From contig JAHKLX010000007.1 of the NCBI GenBank assembly GCA_020854835.1, positions 36,044 to 100,043 on the forward strand: a stretch of 64,000 nt of DNA, given 5' to 3'. Positions 9,196 to 26,486 of this stretch are shown here, in pieces. Below the pieces are notes generated by a model. It did no database searches, had not been told where the DNA came from, and worked only from the letters and a program-made list of their open reading frames with translations. The translations under genes were made by a program, and so were the position numbers. This stretch comes from Candidatus Micrarchaeota archaeon. Its GTDB lineage: Archaea; Micrarchaeota; Micrarchaeia; Anstonellales; JAGGVH01. Each line of letters starts with the position of its first letter. The stretch's first letter is position 1.

Positions 9196-10023
9196 ATGTT
9201 TATGTTAATTCTACCAAAACAAAGAGAAGCATATTGGATAGCAGTAGGAATTGGTGGATTTGGAGTAATTGTAGGACTTGTAGGAGGAGGACAAATATTG
9301 TCATTCATAGGGCTGCTTGCTGCAGGTTTAGGTGCGGTATTATCCCTATTAATTTATCAATACGGGTATTTGATTGTTCCTATTTTTACTAAATTTTCAA
9401 GAATTGTAGTTGTAACTCCAGATAAAGAATATGAGATACCTCCTTCACAAGATGTTATTATTAAAAAAACAGGAGATTCATACTACGCAACAAAATTTTT
9501 GGGAGTTCAGATTTTTGAATCCGCAGCTGAAAAAAGCACCGAGGAAAATGTAACTTACATGCTCGCTTTTGAACGTGCAATTTCATCTGTAAAACATGTA
9601 ACAAAGTTTTCAATGATGGTTTATGTTTTAGATATAACAGAAAAAAAGAGAGATATTGAAACAAGAAAATATGAAGCACAACTCAAGCTGGCAAAACAAA
9701 GAGAAAAAGGTCAAGATATGGATGTGCTTTTAATTGATAAATACGAACATGAAATATCAATGTGGGAAAAAGAACTTGAAAAAATCTCAAGAGGTGAAAA
9801 ACCTATGGCAGTTGTGGCGTATATTATGACAACTGCAATCGGGGTTTCAAAAGAAGCTGCCATGGCCGCTGCAAATGGACAAGCAAACGAAATACGTGCA
9901 TCAGTTTCTAATGCACTTAATGCAAAAATAGAAATCATGAAAGCAGATGATATGCTTAGGTGCTTCCAGTGGGAATATCTTCTCCCAGTGTCATATGCAG
10001 AATGGAAACAGCAGGTTGATTAA
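9196..10023 (+). CDS. Membrane protein with coiled coil, possible VirB3/VirB4-N-terminal-like partner of the ATPase
   Basis: Two Gly-rich TM helices, alpha/beta region, charged coiled coil; 2 nt upstream of the ATPase gene. Confidence 0.6.
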   Translation: MFMLILPKQREAYWIAVGIGGFGVIVGLVGGGQILSFIGLLAAGLGAVLSLLIYQYGYLIVPIFTKFSRIVVVTPDKEYEIPPSQDVIIKKTGDSYYATKFLGVQIFESAAEKSTEENVTYMLAFERAISSVKHVTKFSMMVYVLDITEKKRDIETRKYEAQLKLAKQREKGQDMDVLLIDKYEHEISMWEKELEKISRGEKPMAVVAYIMTTAIGVSKEAAMAAANGQANEIRASVSNALNAKIEIMKADDMLRCFQWEYLLPVSYAEWKQQVD

Positions 10024-10025
10024 AT

Positions 10026-11600
10026 ATGGGATGGTTAAAAATACGAGATATATCTAATATTACTCTCGCAAGAAGAAATATTCTAGTTAGACCTCCTGAA
10101 CCCCCTCCAGAAATGCTCTGGTCCGATCCCAGTAATTCCATATTCACTGGAAAAACTAAAATATTTAACATACCCTTTTATTGGAATTATAATGAATTAA
10201 CAAATCCTCATCTGGCAATAGTCGGAATAACAGGTTCAGGTAAATCATATTTCATTAAAACTTTTTTAACCCGTGCAGCTTTGGTTTGGGACAGCAATGC
10301 ATTTATTATTGACTGGGCAGGAGAATACCGAGAATGGGTTAAATCTGCAGGAGGAACAGTTATCTCACTTGGAAAAGGATCTTATATTAATTTGTTGGAT
10401 ACTGGAGGAATGACTCCAAATAATAGAATCAAACAAATAATAAGAACTCTTGAAATATTGACAGATATAAATCAATATCCTGAACAAAAAAGATTAACTG
10501 AATTGGCAATAGAAGAAGCTTATAAAAAAGCTAATTTCAAAATGGATTCTATAGTTCAAAAAGACAGTTCTGGAACTGAATTGATTGCCCCAACATTGAA
10601 AGATGTTGTTGAAAATTTAGAAAAAACTTACAAAAGGGGAGGATATGAATATCCTGCCGAACTGCAAAATTCTATTTACAGATTGAAACAATACACAAAA
10701 ACAGGTCAAGATTTTTTTGCACAACAAAGCACTCTTGATTTAGATAAATTAACAAATTCGGGTTTAGTATCACTGGATTTGTCAGGTTTGCCAGATGAAA
10801 TATTTAGAGCGTTGGCTGCCCTTTCAATGCTCCAATTCATTAAAGAAAAAATGAGGGCAGCAGGCTGGAAAAAGAGAAAAGGAATTCAACTATTTGTTGT
10901 GTTGGATGAAGCTTGGAAAATTGCAGGAGATGAAAACAGTGATGCAGTTATGATAGTTAGAGAAGGTCGTAAATATAATTTTAGTTTGATTGTTGCGAGC
11001 CAGAACCCAACAGATATTAATGAGGCAATATTTTCAAACGTAGGAACCACATTCGTATTTAAAGTTAAATTTGAAAGATATTTGAATTATATACAAGGAA
11101 CTTTAAACTTCAGTGATTTCATTCGAGAAGAAATTTCAAAATTGGGTGTTGGACAATGCGCAGTCAATATGGCTTTTACCACGAGTGCGAATTATCCATC
11201 AACTTTTCTAGTTCAGAAAATTGAAGGTGAAGAACCTTTGGTAGAATACTTCCTTGATGTTGGCAGTGTGCTCACTGAGGAAGAAAGGAGGGATGTAAGA
11301 GTGGCAAGAAGTGTAGCAATTGAAAGAGAAGAGATGAGGAAGAGGCTTAGAATGTATGGTCTCAATGAATCTCAGCTTGAAGAAATTTCATCTCTTTTTG
11401 ATAAGAAAAATAAACATATTGACATAGTTTCATTTGTAATTCTTTTACAGAGATATGGATTAGCACGAAACAAAATAACAGCATTGTTAAAAGATTTTGG
11501 TGTTGCAGATTCAACAATCATCAACATCTTTATTAAAGCTGACTTTAAAGTTCATTCGGCGACAAGCCAGGATATTATGGATATTATTTTAGAGGAATAG
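10026..11600 (+). CDS. VirB4/HerA/FtsK-superfamily ATPase (DUF87-like)
   Basis: NPHLAIVGITGSGKS Walker A, IIDWAGEY, VVLDEAW Walker B, REGRKY..LIVASQNP. Confidence 0.9.
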   Translation: MGWLKIRDISNITLARRNILVRPPEPPPEMLWSDPSNSIFTGKTKIFNIPFYWNYNELTNPHLAIVGITGSGKSYFIKTFLTRAALVWDSNAFIIDWAGEYREWVKSAGGTVISLGKGSYINLLDTGGMTPNNRIKQIIRTLEILTDINQYPEQKRLTELAIEEAYKKANFKMDSIVQKDSSGTELIAPTLKDVVENLEKTYKRGGYEYPAELQNSIYRLKQYTKTGQDFFAQQSTLDLDKLTNSGLVSLDLSGLPDEIFRALAALSMLQFIKEKMRAAGWKKRKGIQLFVVLDEAWKIAGDENSDAVMIVREGRKYNFSLIVASQNPTDINEAIFSNVGTTFVFKVKFERYLNYIQGTLNFSDFIREEISKLGVGQCAVNMAFTTSANYPSTFLVQKIEGEEPLVEYFLDVGSVLTEEERRDVRVARSVAIEREEMRKRLRMYGLNESQLEEISSLFDKKNKHIDIVSFVILLQRYGLARNKITALLKDFGVADSTIINIFIKADFKVHSATSQDIMDIILEE

Positions 11601-12143
11601 GTGGTTCATATGGATTTGTTTAAATTGTTTAAAGGAAAAGAAAAAAAAGAAAAGACATTTGAAAATTTTGATGTTAAAAATTCAAATGTTTGTATGGAAT
11701 GTGGAAAAATAGTTATTCCATCTAAAGCTGTACCAGTAAAGGATGACTTTGTGTTGAATGTTATCAAATCCATAAAACAAAAAACAAAAACAATAAAAAA
11801 CAACAAATTATTTATATGTCCAAGTTGCTGGCCAGAATATGAAAAAAACAGAAAAAGATTTGTAAATGGAGTATTTTTCTGGAGTGTTTTGCTAGGGGTT
11901 TTTTTAGTAGTGTTATTGGTAACTCCTTTGTTAACTCAGAATTCATATCCGCTACTTAATGTTGTTTTTCTGTTGTTGGGAATTTTTGCATTTTGGGTGC
12001 TTTTAATGATCATGCAAATTTATTCTTCATATAGGCCCGGAACTGAATTTGATATTAAAAACCTTAAAGAATACACTCCTAGCAAGAAAAAAAATATTGT
12101 GGCAAAAGCTAAAAAATCAAAGAAAAAGAGGGTGAAAAAATGA
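11601..12143 (+). CDS. Zinc-binding membrane protein
   Basis: CMECG...CPSC pair, two TM helices, basic tail. Confidence 0.7.
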   Translation: MVHMDLFKLFKGKEKKEKTFENFDVKNSNVCMECGKIVIPSKAVPVKDDFVLNVIKSIKQKTKTIKNNKLFICPSCWPEYEKNRKRFVNGVFFWSVLLGVFLVVLLVTPLLTQNSYPLLNVVFLLLGIFAFWVLLMIMQIYSSYRPGTEFDIKNLKEYTPSKKKNIVAKAKKSKKKRVKK

Positions 12144-12916
12144 GTGGTCTGCCATTCCCAGGAAAACCTCAGCAAAAACAAGATAAAAAAAAGGTTAAAG
12201 ATGAAGTTAAAGAACCCCTTGTAGAGGGGTTTGAAATACCTGGAAAAAGATTGGGTTCCTCACAAGATATATTGCAGTCTTTATCACAAGTCTCATACAT
12301 TCAAACAATTGTTGATAAAGAAGATTATGTGATATTGAACGTTGAAAGCAGAGACCTAACCAATAAACCATATCTATTTTCAATAATTCACTTAAAACCA
12401 GATACTATTCAGGTTCTTTACACTGTAACCCCTGGAATGAGTCCTAGGAAAAGAAGAGTAGATATATTAAGATATTTTTTTACGGTTTTATCCATGGTTA
12501 GTGAATATTACGAAATCAGAATGGCAGTGGTTTATCAGCTTTTTGAAGATTCTATAGATAAAATTAGTGAATATGTGACGTTAGATTATGAAGAAATGTA
12601 CGCCAGATATGACTCCATAAAATCAGAAAATGAAAGATTGAAATCAGACATTGCAAAAATAAGTGAAACTAGCCGAGAAATATCAAAAGAAAATTACGAT
12701 CTTAAAACTAAAATTGACGATCTTAAAATAAAGCTCGATAGGTTGAGCAAACACAGTGACGATTCACTTAAAGTAAGATTAATGGAATGGATAAATGAGC
12801 ATCAGGGAGAAATAAATGTTCCTGAAGTTGCAAGAATGTATTCAGTGCCTGATGCAAAAATAGAAGAACTCCTTAATGAATTAATGAGAGAAGGATATTT
12901 GAAATCTATAAGTTAA
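12140..12916 (+). CDS. Coiled-coil protein with C-terminal winged-helix-like domain
   Basis: Heptad region followed by GEINVPEVARMYSVPDAKIEELLNELMREGYL. Confidence 0.7.
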   Translation: MSGLPFPGKPQQKQDKKKVKDEVKEPLVEGFEIPGKRLGSSQDILQSLSQVSYIQTIVDKEDYVILNVESRDLTNKPYLFSIIHLKPDTIQVLYTVTPGMSPRKRRVDILRYFFTVLSMVSEYYEIRMAVVYQLFEDSIDKISEYVTLDYEEMYARYDSIKSENERLKSDIAKISETSREISKENYDLKTKIDDLKIKLDRLSKHSDDSLKVRLMEWINEHQGEINVPEVARMYSVPDAKIEELLNELMREGYLKSIS

Positions 12917-12930
12917 CTGAGGGATAATAA

Positions 12931-15321
12931 TTGAAAATAAAAATCAAAAAACAAACATATAAATTTCAGATGAAAAAACCTTTTAGTTATCGTAAAAGAT
13001 TTACAAAAATTAAAGATTTTGTTAAAACTCCGATGGAGATTATAAAAGAAAAGATATCTGGAATAACTCCAAAAACGATTGTGATGTCAGGCATATTCCA
13101 GATACTTGTTTTGTTGATCGGATTTATATATATTGTCATAGGTGCAGCACCTTTTTTTACACCTTCCGAAACATTGTCCTCAAGCTCACCACCCTATTCA
13201 CTCGAGCAGTGGATAGGCCATGAAAAAATAATTAATGATTTAACCTATATGGAAACTATTTCATATCTTGGAAGTTCAAATGATATCAAACATACTTTTG
13301 CTTTGTATGGTCCTAGCAACTATACAATACGGACATCGAAAAATGGGGTCCCTTCAGTTATCTATTTTTTAGAAGTTCCTAATCAGAGATATTCATCTGG
13401 GATGCTTTCTGGAAAAGACTTATTCAAAGAATTACTAAAAGTCAAATTAAAAAACAATGGATACACCCTCATATCAATCGGTATCGAGGATATGCAAAGA
13501 TTAAAAAACGATGATGTAGTCGTCGCACCCACAGGATATTTTCCTGTTGAGTTCGCAAATAATTTAAAAACTACTATGATATTTATTGGTTCTGATATAA
13601 GGGGAGTAGATATTGATATTGAAGAAAAAGGCGCCCAGAGTGGAATAAGATCATCTAAATTAAACATATATAATGCCAGATATCTGATACGATCACCAAC
13701 AAAAAAAACATATGGGGATGTTATCGATATGTTTGAATATGATGAAGGCAAAATTGTTACAGTTCCGGGAGAATTTGAAAACGGAAGAAATTGGAATTCA
13801 ATTGATGATGCAGTTGACGATGTTGTTAAAATAATTACAGAATCACCTTGGGATGAAGTGTATGGAAATAGATATATAACTGAGGGAGTGTTGGGATTTG
13901 GCTCGGAATTTAGTGGTGACGAAGCTTATTTTTTAATTAAAAATGACGAAGGAAAGATTATAAGCTCGGGAAAAGGAGTAAGTAAAAATAGTTTGAGAGT
14001 GTATACGGCTACAAAAAACATCCCGCCCTATGGAATACATCGAAGCAGAGATGAGATATTTATTAAACCTGAAAAAATGTTTTTATCGAATGAAGAAGTT
14101 GGGAGGTATAGGGGAGAAGTTTATACTGCTCCACCTGTTGAATCCTCGCCAGTAAAAATTGCATCGATAACTACTTCAGAAATTGTTGTGGAAAACCGAA
14201 GAGAACCCTTTTTCGGACCAGGGAATTATTTGTTGGTAATATCAGATGGCCCAGTAACTGCGGGCAAGATTGGCACAATACACGGATTTACGGTTGTCGA
14301 ACCAATTATAAGCATCAACCCCAATCCTGAAACAAATACCCATATAATAACTATAGCGTGCGGAGATAGATGTGATGTTTTTGATTATGATTCAGTTGTT
14401 GTTTATATAGATGAAAAACAAGTTGGAAAATTCCAGAACAATGAAAAAACAATAACCTTGAGAGATCTTAAAATAAATCCTGAAAATCATGTGTTGACAT
14501 TAGGATTTGTTAGAGCAGATGGGAGAGAATATAGAGTTTCCAAAGAATTTTATGTTCAAAGTGTTGGACTCGACCAGTATCTAAATAATCCGATATATCT
14601 CGTTGTTGGATCAATTTTGGTGATTGTAGTTGCAGCTGCAATACAACTCAGAAGAAAGGATAAAATTGTTTATAATTTAGATATTCCTGATTTCCCACCC
14701 CTTTCTAGAATAACTGTACCATTGAAAAAAAGTACAGTAATTTCTTTGTTTGACAAGATAAACAAAGAATATGGTTGGCATTATTTGCCAATATCAAGCG
14801 AGGAATTCCAAAGTGCATTGATGAGGCTTTCTTATAGGGGAAGACCAATAAGCGCCAGCATAAATAATATTGAAAGAATATTGGATTTGTTGTGTTCAGA
14901 GGGTTATGCAAAAGTGTATAATGAGTATTACGGACTAAGCAGATGGGAAGAAGAATTAGGTATAAGTATTAAACACCTATCAATATTAAGAAAACTAAGA
15001 GATTTGTTTATAAACAATGTTCTGAGATTCGAGCCTTTTGGAACAATAAAACATTCTGATACAAAAATATACATATCTGGAAATGAATATTATGTTATTT
15101 TATTCAAAAATGCCAAAGACACCATACTGAATTCTATTGGTCCCCTATCTGAAGAAAATGTGATTATAATATTTGAAAGTACATATCAAAAAGATGAATT
15201 TCTTGAAACGCTTTATTCCAAAGACAATGAAGTTTTGGCATTCAAATTAGAATTGAATTCGCATAGAATAAAAACTTTCACAATTGAAGAGTTTGAGAGC
15301 TTTGTTAAAAGTGAGAAATAG
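12931..15321 (+). CDS. Large membrane protein (2 TM, big extracellular region, ~220-aa cytoplasmic tail)
   Basis: Hydrophobic segments near residues 55-75 and 555-573; last gene of the five-gene run. Confidence 0.7.
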   Translation: MKIKIKKQTYKFQMKKPFSYRKRFTKIKDFVKTPMEIIKEKISGITPKTIVMSGIFQILVLLIGFIYIVIGAAPFFTPSETLSSSSPPYSLEQWIGHEKIINDLTYMETISYLGSSNDIKHTFALYGPSNYTIRTSKNGVPSVIYFLEVPNQRYSSGMLSGKDLFKELLKVKLKNNGYTLISIGIEDMQRLKNDDVVVAPTGYFPVEFANNLKTTMIFIGSDIRGVDIDIEEKGAQSGIRSSKLNIYNARYLIRSPTKKTYGDVIDMFEYDEGKIVTVPGEFENGRNWNSIDDAVDDVVKIITESPWDEVYGNRYITEGVLGFGSEFSGDEAYFLIKNDEGKIISSGKGVSKNSLRVYTATKNIPPYGIHRSRDEIFIKPEKMFLSNEEVGRYRGEVYTAPPVESSPVKIASITTSEIVVENRREPFFGPGNYLLVISDGPVTAGKIGTIHGFTVVEPIISINPNPETNTHIITIACGDRCDVFDYDSVVVYIDEKQVGKFQNNEKTITLRDLKINPENHVLTLGFVRADGREYRVSKEFYVQSVGLDQYLNNPIYLVVGSILVIVVAAAIQLRRKDKIVYNLDIPDFPPLSRITVPLKKSTVISLFDKINKEYGWHYLPISSEEFQSALMRLSYRGRPISASINNIERILDLLCSEGYAKVYNEYYGLSRWEEELGISIKHLSILRKLRDLFINNVLRFEPFGTIKHSDTKIYISGNEYYVILFKNAKDTILNSIGPLSEENVIIIFESTYQKDEFLETLYSKDNEVLAFKLELNSHRIKTFTIEEFESFVKSEK

Positions 15322-18955: not shown

Positions 18956-20207
18956 GCCCTTTTGAATTGTAACCCAATATTTCTAATTCTTTTGAGAATT
19001 CTTCTGTGTTCTCTCCATGAACAACAAAAATATTTTCAGGTTTGATTAGACGGTATAATTTAATTAAATCGGTTTTATCAGGATGTGCTGAAAAAGAATG
19101 CTGCCTTATACTTGCAGAAACTTTAGTTTCAATTCCATCAACAGTTATTGTTTCGCTACCATCAATTAATTTCCTACCATTTGAACCTTCAACACAATAT
19201 CCAGTAAATATAATTGTGTCTTGAGAAAACAAACGATTTGCATACCAAAGAAAAGGTCCCCCTTCACCCATTCCTGCAGTTGTTATTATAATGTTGTTAC
19301 CCGATATTGCCTTTTTACGGTTAGGTCCTGTAGCAATTTGAGAAGCTTGTTTTAAATTTTGAAAAAGATTTTCTGATTTTTTAACGTCACAAGAATTAAA
19401 TGAAAGCTTTGTTGCTTTTATACCCATGCCATCAACATAAATTTTTTGTTTGTTTGGGAAATGTTTTAGTAAAACTCTAAGTATCTCTGCTGTTCTCTCA
19501 ATTGCAAAGGAAGGTAAAACCACACAACCCGTTTCCAATCCTGCTTTAACACTTTCAATAAATTTTCGCTCCAGAGTGTCCCGAGATTGGTGAAATGCGT
19601 TTGAATAAGTTGATTCAGTGATTAAATGTGAAATGGGTATGTCTATATTTTGAAATGCTGACAAATCAGCAGGTTCCATTAATAATCTATTTTCATTCAA
19701 ACAAAAATCTCCAGTGTATATTATTCTTTCATCTTGGAATCTAATATCAACCATCGCAGATCCAGGGATATGTCCTGCTGAAAAAAATGAAAAAGTTGTT
19801 TCTCCTATTCGAATAGTTTTGTTTAGAGAAATTGGCATTAAATTATCCTTAACAATATCAACAATTGGCTGTATCATACACTCGGAACCTCCAATTTTAA
19901 CAGAATCATCAAGAAGAAGAGTCGTTAATTTTTTAGTTGTTAGAGTCGAGTATATGGGAATGTCCAGGGCATTCGAAGTTTTGCTGAAAAGATACGGCAG
20001 TCCGCCAACGTGATCTAAATGTGCATGAGACAATATAACTGCATCAACTTTTTCATCAGGAACTTCAGGAAATATAAGCTGTCTCTCGCCTGGAATTTGT
20101 TTGGCCCCAAAATCCAACAAAATATTTCTATCAGTTTTGACTAGTATTGCATTTCTGCCAACCTCGCCAGTCCCCCCGTAGAATTTAATTTTTGTTTTTA
20201 GTGTCAT
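18933..20207 (-). CDS. Beta-CASP metallo-beta-lactamase ribonuclease
   Basis: GGTGEVGRN, SHAHLDH, AGHIPGS, YTGD, ESTY, FSAH, VHGE. Confidence 0.92.
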   Translation of the reverse strand: MTLKTKIKFYGGTGEVGRNAILVKTDRNILLDFGAKQIPGERQLIFPEVPDEKVDAVILSHAHLDHVGGLPYLFSKTSNALDIPIYSTLTTKKLTTLLLDDSVKIGGSECMIQPIVDIVKDNLMPISLNKTIRIGETTFSFFSAGHIPGSAMVDIRFQDERIIYTGDFCLNENRLLMEPADLSAFQNIDIPISHLITESTYSNAFHQSRDTLERKFIESVKAGLETGCVVLPSFAIERTAEILRVLLKHFPNKQKIYVDGMGIKATKLSFNSCDVKKSENLFQNLKQASQIATGPNRKKAISGNNIIITTAGMGEGGPFLWYANRLFSQDTIIFTGYCVEGSNGRKLIDGSETITVDGIETKVSASIRQHSFSAHPDKTDLIKLYRLIKPENIFVVHGENTEEFSKELEILGYNSKGPKIFDEY

Positions 20208-20310
20208 AATATAATTAAATATGGAGATTGGTTTTTAAAGGTAGTCTATTTGAACTTTAACGAATGCTTTTTATATTTAACTTCTCCAATACTTAATAGG
20301 TGATTAACAT

Positions 20311-20703
20311 ATGTTAAAAAAAATAAGTTTAGTTGTTGTAGTTATGATGCTCATGTTTTATGGGCTTGCGTTTGCTCAAGATGTTTTGGCACAAACATTA
20401 GTGGGCCTATGCGATGATTTGATGGGTTTGGTAGGGCCCTTAGCATATTTATTAGTTGTTTTCGCTGCATTGGTTTATTTGGCAGGCCAATTTGGTGATG
20501 CCCAAATGAGAGCTAAAAGCAGTGTTTGGGCACAGTCTTGTATATTTGGTGCAATTATAGGTTGGGCAATAATCACAATAATTCCTTATATTTTAGCTGC
20601 CTTGTTAAAAGCAAGCGGAGTTAGTATGGGAACTGCCTGTTCAGGGATTGGTACTGCCGGACGCCCTTGTAGTGATATAATACAAAATCAATTCTGTAAT
20701 TAA
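20311..20703 (+). CDS. VirB2/TrbC-like pilin
   Basis: Sec-type signal ending AFA, two hydrophobic helices separated by GDAQMRAKS; no class III signal peptide. Confidence 0.65.
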   Translation: MLKKISLVVVVMMLMFYGLAFAQDVLAQTLVGLCDDLMGLVGPLAYLLVVFAALVYLAGQFGDAQMRAKSSVWAQSCIFGAIIGWAIITIIPYILAALLKASGVSMGTACSGIGTAGRPCSDIIQNQFCN

Positions 20704-20712
20704 GGTGATTAA

Positions 20713-22086
20713 TTGGGGTTGGGATGGCATATTGAAAAAACTGGAGAATATAAAATCAACCTGCCCATTTTAAGCGATGACGAAATTGAAGCTATAAAGC
20801 ACATGGCAAACATGTTCAAAGAAGTTACCAAATACAAAGAACTTGACAATCCTGACAAAGCAAAAAAAGAACTTAAAAATCTTTTGATTAAATTCTGCGA
20901 CAAGGAAGGAATTGTAATTGACAAAGAACAAGAGAATTATTTAACACAAATGGCTTTTTATAATATTTATGGGTTTGCAGGCATGGAAGAAATACTCAAG
21001 GACGAAGAAATAGAAGAAATTGGAATAATTGGTTTGGGCAAGCCAGTTTATGTTTTTGTTAGAAAACAAGGGTGGAAAAAAACAAATTTATATTATGATG
21101 AATTAGATTTTACAATTAACTTGATTAATAAAATGTCAAGAAGCATTGGGAGAAGGATAACTTATAAAAATCCTAGATTGAATGCTGTTCTTCCTGACGG
21201 TTCAAGAATGCACGCATCTATTCCCCCAATATCCAATGTGGAAGTGACAATCAGAAAATTCAAAGAAAATCCAATGACTGTGTTTGATTTGTTGAATTAT
21301 CACACAATTTCTGAAGAAGCAATGGCCTTATTATGGTTTTTAATGCAGGCAGATATATCTATTTTGATAACAGGAAACACTGCAAGCGGAAAAACAACCA
21401 CAATGAATTCTATTTTCTCATTTGTTCCTTTAAATGAAAGAATTTTAATAACAGAAGAAACTCCTGAAATAAACATACCTCACAAACATGTCGTTAAACT
21501 TGTAGCAAATCAGGAACTTGATATAAGTTTGTCTCCTTTGGTTGCAGATTCGCTTAGGATGAGACCTGACAGAGTTATTGTTGGAGAAGTTAGAAATACT
21601 GAAGAGGTTCATGCATTAATGGATACTATATTGAGTGGACAAGCAAGAGGAAGTTATGCAACTTTTCACGCACAGTCATCAAAAGAAACCTTGTCTAGAT
21701 TAAGATCCTTGGGAGTTTTGGAAATTGATCTGCCTTCGATTGATATAATTGTAATCCAAAGAAGAATGATGAAATATAATGTTAAAACAAGAAAATCCGA
21801 AGAGATTAGAAGAATTGTTGAAATAGTAGAAGTTGATAAAAACAATCCTGGAAAAACAACTCCCCTTTTCATATATGATTATGAAAAAGACAGTTGGAAA
21901 GCAGATTATCAAAATTCAGAGATTTTGAAAAGATTGTCTCTTTCACTAGGAGTTCCGCAAAAAGAAATGGAAAACGAAATAAAAACACGAACAGAATTCT
22001 TAAAGAAAAATATAAAAAAGAAATGGAATTTTGAAACTGCTGTAAACGAAATTCAAAAGTTTGCCTACGGGCTTTCGTTAGATTAG
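20713..22086 (+). CDS. Type II/IV secretion ATPase (TadA/CpaF/VirB11 family)
   Basis: LPDGSR, TIRKF, GNTASGKTT, EETPE, LRMRPDRVIVGEVR, TFHA. Confidence 0.95.
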   Translation: MGLGWHIEKTGEYKINLPILSDDEIEAIKHMANMFKEVTKYKELDNPDKAKKELKNLLIKFCDKEGIVIDKEQENYLTQMAFYNIYGFAGMEEILKDEEIEEIGIIGLGKPVYVFVRKQGWKKTNLYYDELDFTINLINKMSRSIGRRITYKNPRLNAVLPDGSRMHASIPPISNVEVTIRKFKENPMTVFDLLNYHTISEEAMALLWFLMQADISILITGNTASGKTTTMNSIFSFVPLNERILITEETPEINIPHKHVVKLVANQELDISLSPLVADSLRMRPDRVIVGEVRNTEEVHALMDTILSGQARGSYATFHAQSSKETLSRLRSLGVLEIDLPSIDIIVIQRRMMKYNVKTRKSEEIRRIVEIVEVDKNNPGKTTPLFIYDYEKDSWKADYQNSEILKRLSLSLGVPQKEMENEIKTRTEFLKKNIKKKWNFETAVNEIQKFAYGLSLD

Positions 22087-22094
22087 GTGAACTG

Positions 22095-23855
22095 ATGAAA
22101 GAATGGGTTGTGAAAATATCAAATAGATTCGGAAAAGGAATAGGAAATGCCTTTTCAAAAGAAGCAAGAACTAAAATAAACAAAAATCTTGAAACTGCAA
22201 ATATGAATGTTTCAGCAGAAAAATATCTTTCTTTTGGAATACTGCTTGCTTTTATTTCTGCAGTTTATTTTGGAACTATATCTTTTTTTATTTTGAATGA
22301 TTTTGTTTGGACAATAATAATTGTTCTTTTATCTTTTGTTTTGATTTATGTTGCAGTGAAATTTTATCCAGGTTTTGAGGCAAAGAGAAGAGGAAAACAA
22401 ATTGAAGCAGAACTTCCCACAGTTTTAAGAATGGTGGGAATACAGTTGGATATTAATATTCAGTTTGAAAAAATTATTGAAAATTTGGCAAACGAAGATT
22501 ATGAGGTTTCAAAAGAATTTGGCATTGTGTTCAGAGAGATTGGTTCAGGTGTTTCAATACCTCTTTCTCTCCAGCACATGACAGACAGGGTTGAATCTGA
22601 AATATTTAGCAGAACTGTAAACCAATTAGTTATGAATTATGAAAAAGGAGGAAAAGGCGGCGAACTTAAAAGAGTTGCAAATCAATTAGCAGAAATGCAA
22701 GTATCTGAACTTAAAGCTTTTGAATCAAAAATGGCTTTTACAGGACTTATATTTATTGCAGTTTCATGCTTGATGCCTGCTTTTTTCCAAATATTTATAG
22801 CAATAGGTGGAATTTTGGGAAATGTATCTGTAAGTTCATTACATATTTGGATAATCTTTGTTTTTGTGTTTCCAGTAATCAGCCTTATTGCTTTGCTTTT
22901 CATAAATATTTCAACTCCACCGATTGCAACTATGCACAAATCAACGTTTGAAAAAGATTTGATAATTATCCAAAGGTTTATGAAAGAGAAAAAGTGGATT
23001 ACGATAACAGATGAAAACGATGCTTCGCCAGTTAAAAAACTCGGAATCAAATTTACTATAGGGGCAGGAATAATTGCAGTTATTTTTCTTATAGGTGGAT
23101 TGATGTTCCATGATGCATTTTATGTATTGTTTTTTGTTTCTTTGGTATCCCCTTTCGTATCATATTTTTATTTCCTATTTTTGGCAGAGGACAGAATACT
23201 TAAAATGGAAAAAAAGCTTCCTGAAGCACTTACACACGCAGCAATGCTTCAAAAAGGAATGAGCACCGAACAAATTATTGGTGAAATGAGCAAACAAAAA
23301 GGACCGCTCGGAAATGAATTTAAAATTGCTTACAGACAAATCTCAGCAGGAGCAGATGTTGAAAGTTCACTTATGGCAATAGCAGAACGAAATAATTCAC
23401 TCCTTATCAAAAGGGCTGTTAAATTGATAATACATGGATACTATGCTGGAGCAGATATGTATTCTGCATTGAGGGAAACGGCAGAGGATATATACTCTTT
23501 ATTTATATTGATATCACAACGAAAATCTGTTCTTGCTTTGCAAAAATATACTCTTCTTTTGGGGGGAGCTATATTGGTGCCTTTAATTTTGGGGAGTATT
23601 CTGCAAGTGGTTGGTTCATTGAATACACACGGATTGGTGTCTGTTTTAACAGATAAAGAAATAACAGACACAGCAGATATATTAGAGACCATTAAGTCTG
23701 CAACATTTGTATATCTAATGATATTTAGTATTATATCTGGGATTATGATTGCACAACAAGAGGGAGAATCAAAAAAAGCAATAGTTTATGCAGTAATTAT
23801 TGTTATTTGTGCAGCAGTGTTATACACATTGGCGCTTAGCTCAAAAATAATTTGA
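22095..23855 (+). CDS. T2SSF-family platform protein (TadB/TadC/ArlJ-like, two GspF domains)
   Basis: Two repeats (IEAELP...SKEF and MEKKLP...GNEF) each flanked by TM helices; follows the ATPase. Confidence 0.88.
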   Translation: MKEWVVKISNRFGKGIGNAFSKEARTKINKNLETANMNVSAEKYLSFGILLAFISAVYFGTISFFILNDFVWTIIIVLLSFVLIYVAVKFYPGFEAKRRGKQIEAELPTVLRMVGIQLDINIQFEKIIENLANEDYEVSKEFGIVFREIGSGVSIPLSLQHMTDRVESEIFSRTVNQLVMNYEKGGKGGELKRVANQLAEMQVSELKAFESKMAFTGLIFIAVSCLMPAFFQIFIAIGGILGNVSVSSLHIWIIFVFVFPVISLIALLFINISTPPIATMHKSTFEKDLIIIQRFMKEKKWITITDENDASPVKKLGIKFTIGAGIIAVIFLIGGLMFHDAFYVLFFVSLVSPFVSYFYFLFLAEDRILKMEKKLPEALTHAAMLQKGMSTEQIIGEMSKQKGPLGNEFKIAYRQISAGADVESSLMAIAERNNSLLIKRAVKLIIHGYYAGADMYSALRETAEDIYSLFILISQRKSVLALQKYTLLLGGAILVPLILGSILQVVGSLNTHGLVSVLTDKEITDTADILETIKSATFVYLMIFSIISGIMIAQQEGESKKAIVYAVIIVICAAVLYTLALSSKII

Positions 23856-24400
23856 TGATTAAGATGGAAAACATAAAAAAACTTCTGATATTACAATTTA
23901 AAAAAGATGGGATAAATAAAAAAGAATATTTGGAATTAAACGAAAAAGAAAAGCGTTTTCTGGAAATTAAAAAATCAAAATATTATGTTAAAGAAAAATA
24001 TAGAAAAAAAATAAAAGTGGTTATGACTGGAGGAGTTTTTGATATACTCCATTACGGGCACATAAAAATGCTTGAAAAAGCTAAAAAATGTGGGGATTTG
24101 TTGGTTGTTGTTTTGGCTAATGATAAAAATGTTAAAAAATACAAGAACATTACTCCATTCCACAATGAAAAACAAAGATGCAGTATACTTGAATGTTTAA
24201 ATCTTGTCGATGTTGTTATTGTAGGTAAAGATAACAGAGAAGACTCTTTAAAAAGAATAAATCCAGATGTTTTGGTTTATGGATATGATCAAAAAACATT
24301 TATCACGCATACTAAAACAGTTAAGTTCAAATGTAAAGAAAAAGGCTTTAATTCATCACAGATGAGGGATGCGATTAATAATAAAGAATATAAATGTTAA
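23852..24400 (+). CDS. ribL: Cytidylyltransferase family, FAD synthase-like
   Basis: GGVFDILHYGH, LVVVLAND, PDVLVYGYDQ. Confidence 0.75.
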   Translation: MMIKMENIKKLLILQFKKDGINKKEYLELNEKEKRFLEIKKSKYYVKEKYRKKIKVVMTGGVFDILHYGHIKMLEKAKKCGDLLVVVLANDKNVKKYKNITPFHNEKQRCSILECLNLVDVVIVGKDNREDSLKRINPDVLVYGYDQKTFITHTKTVKFKCKEKGFNSSQMRDAINNKEYKC

Positions 24401-24418
24401 CATTGAGTTTAGTTAAAG

Positions 24419-25171
24419 GTGTTGGTTATGGTCGGGAAAAAAATAGAAATAAGAATGATTAAAAAAATAAAGCCAAAAAAAGGAGCAACATTTATTGAAG
24501 GCCTTCCAGGAATAGGTCTTGTGGGCACAATCGCCGCATCATATGTAAAACAAAAAATGGATATGGAATTGGTGGGCTACGTATATTCATACAACTTCCC
24601 TCCAATCATAGCAATTCATAAATTCAAACCTTCGTACCCTATGAGGTTATATTATTCACAGAAAGAAAATTTGTTTGTTTTGGTATCAGAATTTGTCGTA
24701 CCAACACCCTTAGTTGTTGAATTATCTGAATTGATATTTGATTTTGTGAAGAAATATAAAATTTCAAAAATTGTTTCGCTGGGCAGTATAACTATCAAAG
24801 GAGAACAGGACACAGTTTATGCCATAGCAACACATGATAAAGATTTGAGAATGCTTTCAAAAATAAAAACTGTGGAGCTTATTAAAGAAGGAGCGACGAC
24901 AGGCGTGACAGCAATGCTCCTCGCAAGAGGAATCGCATCAAACACTGAAGTTGTTTCCCTTTTAGCAGAAGCGAGAGAAGAGTATATTGATCCAGGAGCT
25001 GCAGCAATGGTAATTAAAGTGTTGAATGATGTAATAGTTCCAAATATAGATACCGACACTCTAGAACAAGAAGCCAAAGATATAGAAAAAGAAATGAAAG
25101 ATGTTGTTTCAAAAGTAAAAAATGAGAATTCTAGATACAAGAAGATGGAATCATTTGGATTCTATGGATAA
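24419..25171 (+). CDS. Proteasome assembly chaperone (PAC2 family)
   Basis: IEGLPGIGLVGTIAA, P..PMRLY, DPGAAA. Confidence 0.9.
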   Translation: MLVMVGKKIEIRMIKKIKPKKGATFIEGLPGIGLVGTIAASYVKQKMDMELVGYVYSYNFPPIIAIHKFKPSYPMRLYYSQKENLFVLVSEFVVPTPLVVELSELIFDFVKKYKISKIVSLGSITIKGEQDTVYAIATHDKDLRMLSKIKTVELIKEGATTGVTAMLLARGIASNTEVVSLLAEAREEYIDPGAAAMVIKVLNDVIVPNIDTDTLEQEAKDIEKEMKDVVSKVKNENSRYKKMESFGFYG

Positions 25172-26045: not shown

Positions 26046-26486
26046 TTACCAACCATACATCTGTTCAATGGCTTTAGATAATAAGATCCTAAGTAAAATT
26101 CCCTCCCCTTTAGAAATATTTACATTGACTGCTTTCAAACCCTCATTTGTTTGCTGACTAACTCTTACAGAAAAACCCATACTAGAAGATGAAAAATTCA
26201 CAACTGCATTCTTAACGCTTTCAGCGGTTTTATATTCTCCTTTAGAAGGTTGATGAAAAAGTTTAACTTCACTAGTACAACCTTCTAAAACCTCCAAAAT
26301 CCTGCCCATATCAGATGCTGAAAGTTTGACAGTTATTTTATTGTCCCAGTCAAATCTATCCTCAGATTTCTGGTTAGCGCATTCCATAAAAACTGATTGT
26401 TTTAGTTTGTTGAAATCTACCTGTAAAGCAGATCCATTGATGTTTTTATTTGCTTTGTATATTGCAAAAGACTTACTTCTTTCCAT
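26046..26486 (-). CDS. Whirly-like single-stranded nucleic-acid-binding protein
   Basis: FAIYK...SAL, FDWDNK...LS..DMG, LFHQPSKG and terminal GW align by eye with the plant Whirly domain. Confidence 0.75.
   Translation of the reverse strand: MERSKSFAIYKANKNINGSALQVDFNKLKQSVFMECANQKSEDRFDWDNKITVKLSASDMGRILEVLEGCTSEVKLFHQPSKGEYKTAESVKNAVVNFSSSSMGFSVRVSQQTNEGLKAVNVNISKGEGILLRILLSKAIEQMYGW

Follow-up and report, generated by a model that had tools for sequence, protein, structure and literature searches.

Ted of the Thermoproteales and Ced of the Sulfolobales are the described systems closest to the locus studied here. In the available text of their description, both are chromosomal, derived from type IV secretion systems (T4SS), and composed of a VirB2-like two-helix pilin and a VirB4-like ATPase (PMC9905601). 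According to the same text, TedC has a cleavable signal peptide and forms a pilus, and Ced works with the Ups type IV pili (PMC9905601). We analyzed a stretch of 64,000 nucleotides from Candidatus Micrarchaeota archaeon, called the window at its full length, and focused on a pilin gene followed by a secretion ATPase gene and a platform gene at 20311-23855. A sequence-only reading of this DNA had called the pilin VirB2-like, had proposed a hybrid machine formed with the type IV pilus (T4P)-type ATPase or a co-regulation of the T4SS-like pilus with this motor, and had suggested that the locus may form one system with a VirB4-like operon at 9196-15321. From sequence comparison, we considered it rather likely that the pilin is a displaced or dispersed VirB2/TedC-like subunit of a Ced/Ted-like T4SS-derived system with its core at that operon. 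Genomes, contigs, fetched loci and families are given by handles beginning with G, C, L and f, and the window's genome is G000.

The likeness to Ted and Ced extended to details. The window pilin has a putative Sec-type leader ending small-X-small, as TedC has, and a T4P-type system lies beside it, as Ups is partnered with Ced. The best NCBIfam matches of the 524-aa ATPase of the operon were CedB and CedD. There were also differences. The window pilin had no sequence match to solved TedC or CedA1, and the CedB match reached 75.8 bits against a cut-off of 700. The genes for the accessory proteins of 275, 180, 258 and 796 aa had no nameable counterpart, and the profiles showed no homologue of VirB6, CedA or TedA. 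In addition, the host here is a small-genome DPANN-like archaeon with many dispersed pilin paralogues.

A second comparison was made with the Patescibacteria, or Candidate Phyla Radiation (CPR). In these ultrasmall episymbiotic bacteria, a chromosomal T4SS with VirB2-like pilin arrays is near-universal, as far as the available text of the study goes (PMC12102498). The shared features were PF18895 and PF04956 pilins in arrays of at least two divergent genes (PMC12102498, 10.1101/2025.01.22.634366), a near-universal chromosomal VirB4, an ultrasmall and presumably episymbiotic lineage and, within that available text, no obvious relaxase context (PMC12102498). Unlike our archaea, CPR are bacterial, and their pilin lies near virB4 in 1,135 of the 1,948 assemblies with both (PMC12102498), whereas the two were almost never near each other in the archaeal order. 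The VirB4-like protein of the window also differed, being a short 524-aa form encoded after a separate 275-aa membrane protein. These results suggested a parallel to the CPR T4SS in small-genome DPANN-like archaea. A literature search in full texts found no description of VirB2-like pilins in DPANN archaea. A paper on nanohaloarchaea describes VirB4/TraG-like ATPases, and the word "pilin" is absent from its main text as available (PMC10266531).

Co-occurrence and operon linkage of the pilin and VirB4-like genes

Searches were conducted in a class sample of 151 genomes, with thresholds of E ≤ 1e-5 for the pilin profile, E ≤ 1e-40 for the 524-aa VirB4-like ATPase (10026-11600) and E ≤ 1e-70 for the 457-aa ATPase next to the pilin. 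The order sample consisted of 61 genomes. The pilin and the VirB4-like ATPase were each found in 134 of the 151 genomes. Both were present in 133 and both were absent in 16, with one genome carrying the pilin only (G168) and one the VirB4-like ATPase only (G110). Of the 17 genomes lacking the pilin, 16 were also among the 17 lacking the VirB4-like ATPase. The same pattern appeared within family f17, where two genomes of genus g93 carried both genes and the other six carried neither. One of the 151, G080, was an unpublished genome with the pilin and the VirB4-like ATPase and without the 457-aa ATPase; no conclusion hangs on it. The suggestion that the pilin locus and the VirB4-like operon form one system was strongly supported by this co-occurrence (133 with both, 16 with neither, 2 with one) and by operon fusion in sister families. 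With both in 133 of 151 class genomes, the idea of domesticated conjugation seen in Ced and Ted would extend well beyond Crenarchaeota.

Operon fusion was observed in five loci from three sister families (L136-L140; genomes G087, G122, G096, G081 and G091). In these loci, one or more pilin genes headed the VirB4-like operon on one strand. Next came a homologue of the 275-aa protein, present once or twice, then the VirB4-like ATPase and homologues of the 180-aa (zinc-ribbon membrane), 258-aa (coiled-coil/helix-turn-helix) and 796-aa (membrane) proteins, which is the gene order of the window's operon. A paralogous VirB4-like operon in L071, a locus fetched on purpose, ended with a pilin gene. 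The order was alike in L141, L152 and L153, with five to six paralogous membrane proteins of 5-7 transmembrane helices (5-7-TM) between the pilins and the operon. One of these, a 391-aa protein in L153, had a pilin-like N-terminus (pilin profile E 5e-5). Members of the 5-7-TM family were also seen in L143-L151. In the window's genome, a single gene of this family lies right after the fifth pilin paralogue (G000:C6:132932-133930) and six more form a tandem array (G000:C5:51024-58175). By position and topology only, these proteins are candidate VirB6-like channel proteins.

Two further features of the operon were noted in families f13-f15 (L141, L143-L153). The last ~100 residues of the VirB4-like ATPase formed a separate small open reading frame (ORF) after a ~505-aa gene, and the 275-aa gene was duplicated.

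If the pilin belongs to this T4SS-derived system, the 130-aa protein would be exported by the Sec pathway, cut by signal peptidase I and held in the membrane as a two-helix pilin of the VirB2/TrbC/TedC kind. The system core would be the VirB4-like operon, with a VirB3/VirB4-N-like membrane protein, the VirB4-like ATPase and three accessory proteins. The ancestral place of the pilins may have been the head of this operon, as in the sister families, and they would have been dispersed in the present order. The pilin might then form a filament powered by the VirB4-like ATPase and might serve to exchange DNA or nutrients with a host.

Leader, fold and family assignment of the pilin

The sequence-only reading had described a 130-aa ORF with a Sec-type leader, a two-helix hairpin and no class III signal, and all three points held. 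By eye, the N-terminus showed two Lys in a short basic stretch, a hydrophobic core, and Ala-Phe-Ala ahead of Gln-Asp. Ala-Phe-Ala before Gln23 fits small-X-small and is a putative signal-peptidase-I site of a Sec-type leader. A class III site ([KR]-[GA] after a short leader) was absent from the pilin when searched with our own FlaFind-like regular expression. AlphaFold2 was run on an 80-sequence alignment and gave a predicted local distance difference test score (pLDDT) of 88.5 and a predicted template modelling score (pTM) of 0.68. In the model, a helix at 2-21 corresponded to the leader, helices at 23-61 and 64-101 formed the hairpin, and a Cys-containing tail followed. The hairpin loop carries Arg67, which is invariant in the family alignment.

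The pilin family occurred in 61 of 61 order genomes, mostly as several paralogues and tandem arrays. The pilin gene is more than a chance ORF, because its family was found in all of these and in 134 of the 151 class genomes. Close orthologues of the window pilin (P0002-P0004, 56-66% identical) had precomputed PF18895 matches. When the family was scanned at E ≤ 0.01, PF18895 was matched by 31 of 80 members and PF04956 by 12 of 80. The closest ESM Atlas clusters were auto-named TrbC/VirB2 (score 0.94; 208 of 256 features in common). Their taxonomic label was Archaea, most often Microcaldota (the Micrarchaeota of DPANN), which we took as a hint at the placement only. The pilin profile retrieved 308 relatives at E ≤ 1e-3, of which 85 also reached E ≤ 1e-10, from 1.84 billion representatives, and some of the relatives were longer proteins of 340-600 aa. 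A VirB2/TrbC-like protein, as had been claimed, was supported at the family (profile) level.

Several results weighed against the assignment and against the link to the VirB4-like operon. The window pilin itself matched PF18895 below the cut-off of 26.6 bits (22.1 bits, E 1.6e-4; 24.7 bits in a second scan). Unrelated hydrophobic families were also weakly matched, Yip1 by 16 of 80 members and Cyt_bd_oxida_II by 13 of 80; profile matches of such short hydrophobic proteins therefore need caution. No solved pilin was matched when PDB sequences were searched with the family profile (0 matches at E ≤ 10), and Foldseek with the full-length model gave no PDB match at E ≤ 0.001. TedC (8dft_A) stood at Foldseek rank 39 with E 3.8 and did not appear in the list of 50 VIA-align entries. 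The wide search and a second look with VIA-align returned only generic helical hairpins, such as ESCRT-III, chemoreceptors and designed bundles, at Z ~9. The comparison by hhalign with a bona fide PF18895 pilin of contig C7 gave a probability of 63% only. The predicted hairpin is too generic to prove membership in T4SS_pilin or TrbC/VirB2. As for the genomic link, the co-occurring genomes are related and not independent, and the independent gain or loss events may be as few as two. No VirB4-like gene was found within 6 kb of the pilin in the 64 surveyed pilin loci of the order, and no pilin within ~6 kb of the operon in nine f13/f14 loci, where four 5-7-TM membrane genes were found. None of nine 5-7-TM members scanned had a VirB6 or T4SS-family Pfam match, and two matches were at chance level (E ~0.04, far under the cut-off). 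Finally, pilin genes of the order are often operonic with class III-signal genes, which a picture based on VirB4 only leaves unexplained.

Position before a T4P-type motor and competing explanations

The ATPase next to the pilin belongs to the T2SSE superfamily (PF00437, 129.2 bits, cut-off 24.9). Walker A, Asp box, Walker B and His box, the four nucleotide-binding motifs, were all present by eye. The closest solved structures were archaeal T4P/Tad motors, namely Archaeoglobus GspE2 (2oap, 172 bits), FlaI (4ii7 and 4ihq, 146 bits) and CpaF (8rkd and 9e24, 140 bits), whereas VirB11 chains, of the same superfamily, reached 62-77 bits. The NCBIfam ranking was FlaI (NF058587, 211.2 bits, cut-off 550), TadA/CpaF (TIGR03819, 156.9 bits, cut-off 373.15) and VirB11 (TIGR02788, 134.3 bits, cut-off 249.95); unlike typical T4P/Tad motors, the window ATPase passed no equivalog cut-off. 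The call of a TadA/CpaF-like ATPase stood in so far as the protein is of T4P type and not VirB11. It appears to resemble TadA-type ATPases in its working but stands closer, by these scores, to archaeal GspE2 and FlaI.

Two identities were rejected. An archaellum motor was rejected, as no archaellin was found in the genome (the sole PF01917 match had 13.4 bits, below the cut-off). VirB11 was rejected, as its scores were far under those of the T4P-type ATPases and under the TIGR02788 cut-off. The ATPase also differs from VirB11/TrbB in having a T2SSF platform partner; to our knowledge, VirB11 systems have none. The platform matched T2SSF (PF00482) in two stretches with 51.3 bits (cut-off 25.2), both within one 606-aa open frame. 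Two T2SSF domains in one chain are also the build of archaeal FlaJ/PilC-type platforms. The three other T2SSE loci of the genome had platforms made of pairs of single-domain genes, and at least one of them, on C5, was followed by clear class III pilins. The genome therefore holds ordinary T4P loci with ordinary substrates.

The adjacency of pilin and ATPase was limited to one genus. It was found in 3 of the 61 order genomes, namely the window's genome, G001:C14 and G002:C79, with gaps of 9 and 8 nt in the latter two. The junction stop-GGTGAT-TTG was the same in both same-genus genomes (L069, L070). The ATPase had one clear orthologue (42-80% identity) in 59 of the 61. When the pilin profile was run on 20 orthologous ATPase loci from other families, none had a pilin within 3-4 kb. 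The sequence-only reading had regarded an adjacency unique to this genome as fatal to its proposal; the arrangement occurs also in G001 and G002 and reaches no farther than the genus. At the orthologous loci, a DUF192 gene lay upstream in 12 of 20 and PAC2 followed the platform in 6 of 20, and these are the usual neighbours of the pair. A DUF192 homologue of the window's genome lies elsewhere (C5:227137).

The place before the pilus motor would be a genus-level rearrangement that probably caused co-transcription. One pilin copy would have landed before the conserved ATPase/platform pair, at the usual place of the DUF192 gene. Co-transcription of pilin and motor is likely because nothing but a ribosome-binding site lies in the 9-nt gap. 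In that case, a contact-forming pilus machine would be produced along with a conjugation-like conduit subunit, like the Ups pili with Ced in Sulfolobales.

PAC2 (proteasome assembly chaperone-like) genes recurred in both settings. They followed the ATPase-platform pair in the window, L049, L051, L052, L056, L066 and L068, and followed pilin arrays in other families (L072-L074, L090, L091 and L108; also L142 and L154). In the available text of a nanohaloarchaeal study, a proteasome activator gene lies just downstream of VirB4-like genes (PMC10266531).

The pilin neighbourhoods of the order were surveyed in 64 loci of 44 genomes, chosen from the best 150 of 210 matches at one to three per genome and thus not random. 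In one of the fetched loci (L086), no pilin was matched at E ≤ 1e-3. The gene lists leave out any ORF below 60 aa or overlapped over more than half of its length by a longer one. A T2SSE gene lay within 6 kb in 7 of the 64 loci, PAC2 was adjacent in 6, and a gene that we called p210 immediately adjoined the pilin in 10. The p210 product is an order-specific protein of ~210 aa with a class III-like start, [KR]-G-[YF]-x-S-F, and conserved cysteines. It was single-copy in 42 of the 61 order genomes and present in 44 of the 151 class genomes, with two weak matches only outside the order. Its distance to a pilin was less than 500 nt in at least 14 genomes and less than 2.5 kb in 18, with two more cases in the class-wide search. 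The p210 gene was noted at L075, L079, L081, L085, L089, L103, L117, L119, L122, L126 and L127, and in the window's own genome (G000:C6:39910-40974). Directly after p210, a protein of ~105-130 aa with a canonical class III signal was encoded in 7 of 11 loci. Neither p210 nor the small class III-like proteins had a Pfam family above cut-off; a single p210 copy gave a weak match below it. At L124, an ATPase, an 848-aa protein, two single-T2SSF genes, a class III pilin and then a VirB2-like pilin lay on one strand. On contig C6 of the window's genome, three tandem pilins were arranged divergently from a gene with a class III signal. It therefore stays plausible that the two systems are co-regulated. 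The repeated pairing of VirB2-like pilins with type IV pilin-like genes offers a clue to the possible coordination of contact pili with a transfer conduit at host attachment.

Some recurring neighbours were noted in these surveys. A long divergent T2SSE-like ATPase (758-845 aa, Cys-rich N-terminus) was encoded in six loci, with 4 nt to 5.3 kb between it and pilin genes (L075:8442-10784, L085:1011-3548, L089:5360-7669, L098:6281-8617, L114:7828-10104 and L134:1977-4349). Two of these were scanned in Pfam; one had 19.4 bits, below the T2SSE cut-off, and one had no match. The window's own genome had no T2SSE frame of 758-845 aa. GT-C glycosyltransferases also recurred beside pilin genes (L079:8580-10046; similar neighbours of ~480-530 aa in L078, L098, L118, L119, L122, L127, L128, L132, L134, L135, L136 and L141). 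PMT_2 was confirmed by Pfam for one neighbour (47 bits), and the other GT-C calls were made by similar N-terminal sequence only. These neighbours hint at pilin glycosylation.

The arrangement might also be neutral, and we regarded this as unlikely. In that case, a pilin gene landed by chance upstream of the ATPase in the genus ancestor, read-through has no adaptive meaning, and the two systems are independent. The restriction to one genus (3 of 61) agrees with this explanation, as does the higher G+C of the pilin gene (0.384 vs 0.322 and 0.325 for its neighbours). The pilin has also evolved faster than the ATPase within the genus (56-63% vs 78-80% identity), and its paralogues are scattered beside unrelated genes such as PAC2, an antiporter-like gene and glycosyltransferases. 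Many pilins lie at contig ends, which suggests mobile or repetitive loci. Nevertheless, the junction and its ribosome-binding site were kept across three species-level genomes. The several independent pilin/T4P-gene arrangements in the order are also above the few per cent that a rough estimate gives for chance.

Of the 60 pilin loci fetched, about 25 (among L076-L131) lay no more than a few hundred bases away from the end of a contig. Pilin arrays therefore seem to break assemblies, and the copy numbers and neighbourhoods are lower bounds.

A T4P/T4SS chimera across the whole order appeared quite unlikely. In such a chimera, the VirB2-like pilins would have been uncoupled from the VirB4-like operon and recruited into T4P-type modules, where a T2SSE/T2SSF motor and class III-like proteins would assemble or display a conjugation-type subunit for host contact. 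Three T4P-type pilin modules were seen: pilin-p210-class III pilin, a T4P operon ending in a VirB2-like pilin, and pilin-ATPase-platform in this genus.

A hybrid machine at this locus was judged very unlikely. It would have the T4P-type ATPase and the double-T2SSF platform extract and polymerize the VirB2-like pilin, alone or with class III pilin-like proteins, and the product would be a filament of T4SS-type subunits on a T4P-type motor. The tight junction is conserved in three genomes of the genus. In addition, no class III pilin gene adjoins the ATPase/platform pair in the window locus or in any of the 20 orthologous loci, which leaves the pair without a named substrate. Independent links between pilins and T4P-type genes also speak for it, namely the L124 operon, the closeness of p210 to a pilin (up to 500 nt) in no fewer than 14 of the 42 p210 genomes, the class III pilins after p210, the tandem pilins on C6, and a p210-like gene upstream of and divergent to the orthologous ATPase in one of the 20 loci (L057). 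However, the phyletic patterns were decoupled. The 457-aa ATPase orthogroup was found in 72 of the 151 class genomes; 59 genomes had it together with the pilin, 13 had the ATPase only, 75 the pilin only and 4 neither, although the threshold of 1e-70 could miss divergent orthologues. Families f13 (0/45) and f14 (0/25) had no ATPase orthologue at this threshold, yet pilins were present. Conversely, all genomes of f16 (5/5) and f17 (8/8) had the ATPase, and just 2 of those 13 had a pilin (f16 0/5, f17 2/8). The pilin instead tracked the VirB4-like ATPase near-perfectly and was operonic with it in the sister families. We know of no T2SSE/T2SSF machine that handles a Sec-processed two-helix pilin, which also counts against the proposal. 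For the hybrid motor, the outcome was mostly a correction: the adjacency is confined to one genus, and the ATPase occurs without the pilin and the pilin without the ATPase.

It was equally improbable that the protein is no filament subunit but a small resident membrane protein, such as the free-standing two N-terminal helices of VirB6-like proteins serving as a channel or assembly part; the longer proteins with a pilin-like N-terminus (391 aa in L153 and several matches of 340-600 aa), the polytopic family gene after the fifth pilin paralogue, the generic hairpin and the homology of the CedA N-terminus to CedA1 in the available text (PMC9905601) favour this, but surface filament subunits more typically come as divergent paralogues in tandem arrays, like VirB2 in CPR, and with an exposed Cys-rich tail that varies, and TedC, of the same leader-plus-hairpin build, forms a pilus according to that text (PMC9905601).

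Gene layout and further observations

The features of the locus and the VirB4-like operon are given in the table below. The tight spacing described by the sequence-only reading was confirmed by the ORF coordinates: 9 nt between pilin and ATPase and 8 nt between ATPase and platform, all on the + strand, with a double-GspF platform gene (two T2SSF domains) next. The stated distance of ~5 kb to the VirB4-like operon was also correct, with 4,990 nt from its end at 15321 to the pilin gene and housekeeping genes in between.

Features of the pilin locus and of the VirB4-like operon in the window
Feature	Position	Strand	Details
VirB2/TrbC/T4SS_pilin-like pilin gene, 130 aa, ATG start	20311..20703	+	ORF list; PF18895 match below the cut-off
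Leader, codons 1-22	20311-20376	+	
Mature two-helix hairpin and Cys-rich tail	20377-20700	+	
Archaeal type IV pilus-type secretion ATPase, 457 aa, TTG start	20713..22086	+	T2SSE/PilB/FlaI/TadA superfamily
Polytopic platform, 586 aa, ATG start	22095..23855	+	two T2SSF domains (aa 111-231, 382-499)
TATA-like A/T-rich octamer, possible archaeal promoter for the pilin-ATPase-platform unit	20270..20277	+	suggested by the sequence
GGTGAT ribosome-binding hexamer ahead of the pilin ATG	20299..20304	+	
GGTGAT hexamer within the 9-nt gap, ahead of the ATPase TTG	20704..20709	+	
Downstream context: cytidylyltransferase-like gene (23852-24400) and PAC2-family gene (24419-25171)	23852..25171	+	
Five-gene VirB4-like operon	9196..15321	+	275-aa membrane, 524-aa VirB4/CedB-like ATPase, 180-aa, 258-aa and 796-aa proteins

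The TATA-like octamer lies 34-41 nt 5' of the pilin ATG, within a 103-nt intergenic region. The Shine-Dalgarno-like GGTGAT was identical upstream of both starts, with 6-7 nt separating it from the pilin ATG. The junction sequence between the pilin and ATPase genes contained no run of six or more T. The TTG start of the ATPase was backed by conservation of the N-terminus in the G001 and G002 orthologues. The cytidylyltransferase-like gene was missing at the corresponding place in G001.

The surroundings are archaeal housekeeping genes by Pfam (TYW3, an Elp3-like radical-SAM acetyltransferase, a beta-CASP nuclease and PAC2), and the window has a G+C of ~33%. For 20200-24000, eight DNA runs were listed, seven labelled sludge and one landfill, with no RNA run among them.

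The G000 assembly comprises 2.04 Mb in 145 contigs, with 87% completeness and 5.6% contamination, and the window lies on contig C30. The same-genus genomes are 1.0 and 1.2 Mb and relatives are 0.5-1.5 Mb. Many short contigs of 41-51% G+C accompany the long contigs of ~33% G+C. The assembly probably mixes more than one organism because of its large size and these short contigs.

A monoderm/CPR-style T4SS cluster was found at G000:C7:2944-8152 (L024), with an M23 peptidase, a 604-aa VirB4, proteins of 205 and 167 aa, a polytopic protein of 433 aa whose N-terminus is pilin-like, and a PF18895 pilin of 124 aa (43 and 42 bits). The cluster, which has a type I restriction-modification system next to it, may represent a mobile element or a contig from contamination. 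Long VirB4-like genes were also present on contigs C102, C119 and C121. In the window, a 146-aa protein encoded at 26046-26486 on the - strand matched the Whirly single-stranded DNA-binding transcription factor family (PF08536, E 4.6e-12, 46.4 bits), which is mainly known from plants.

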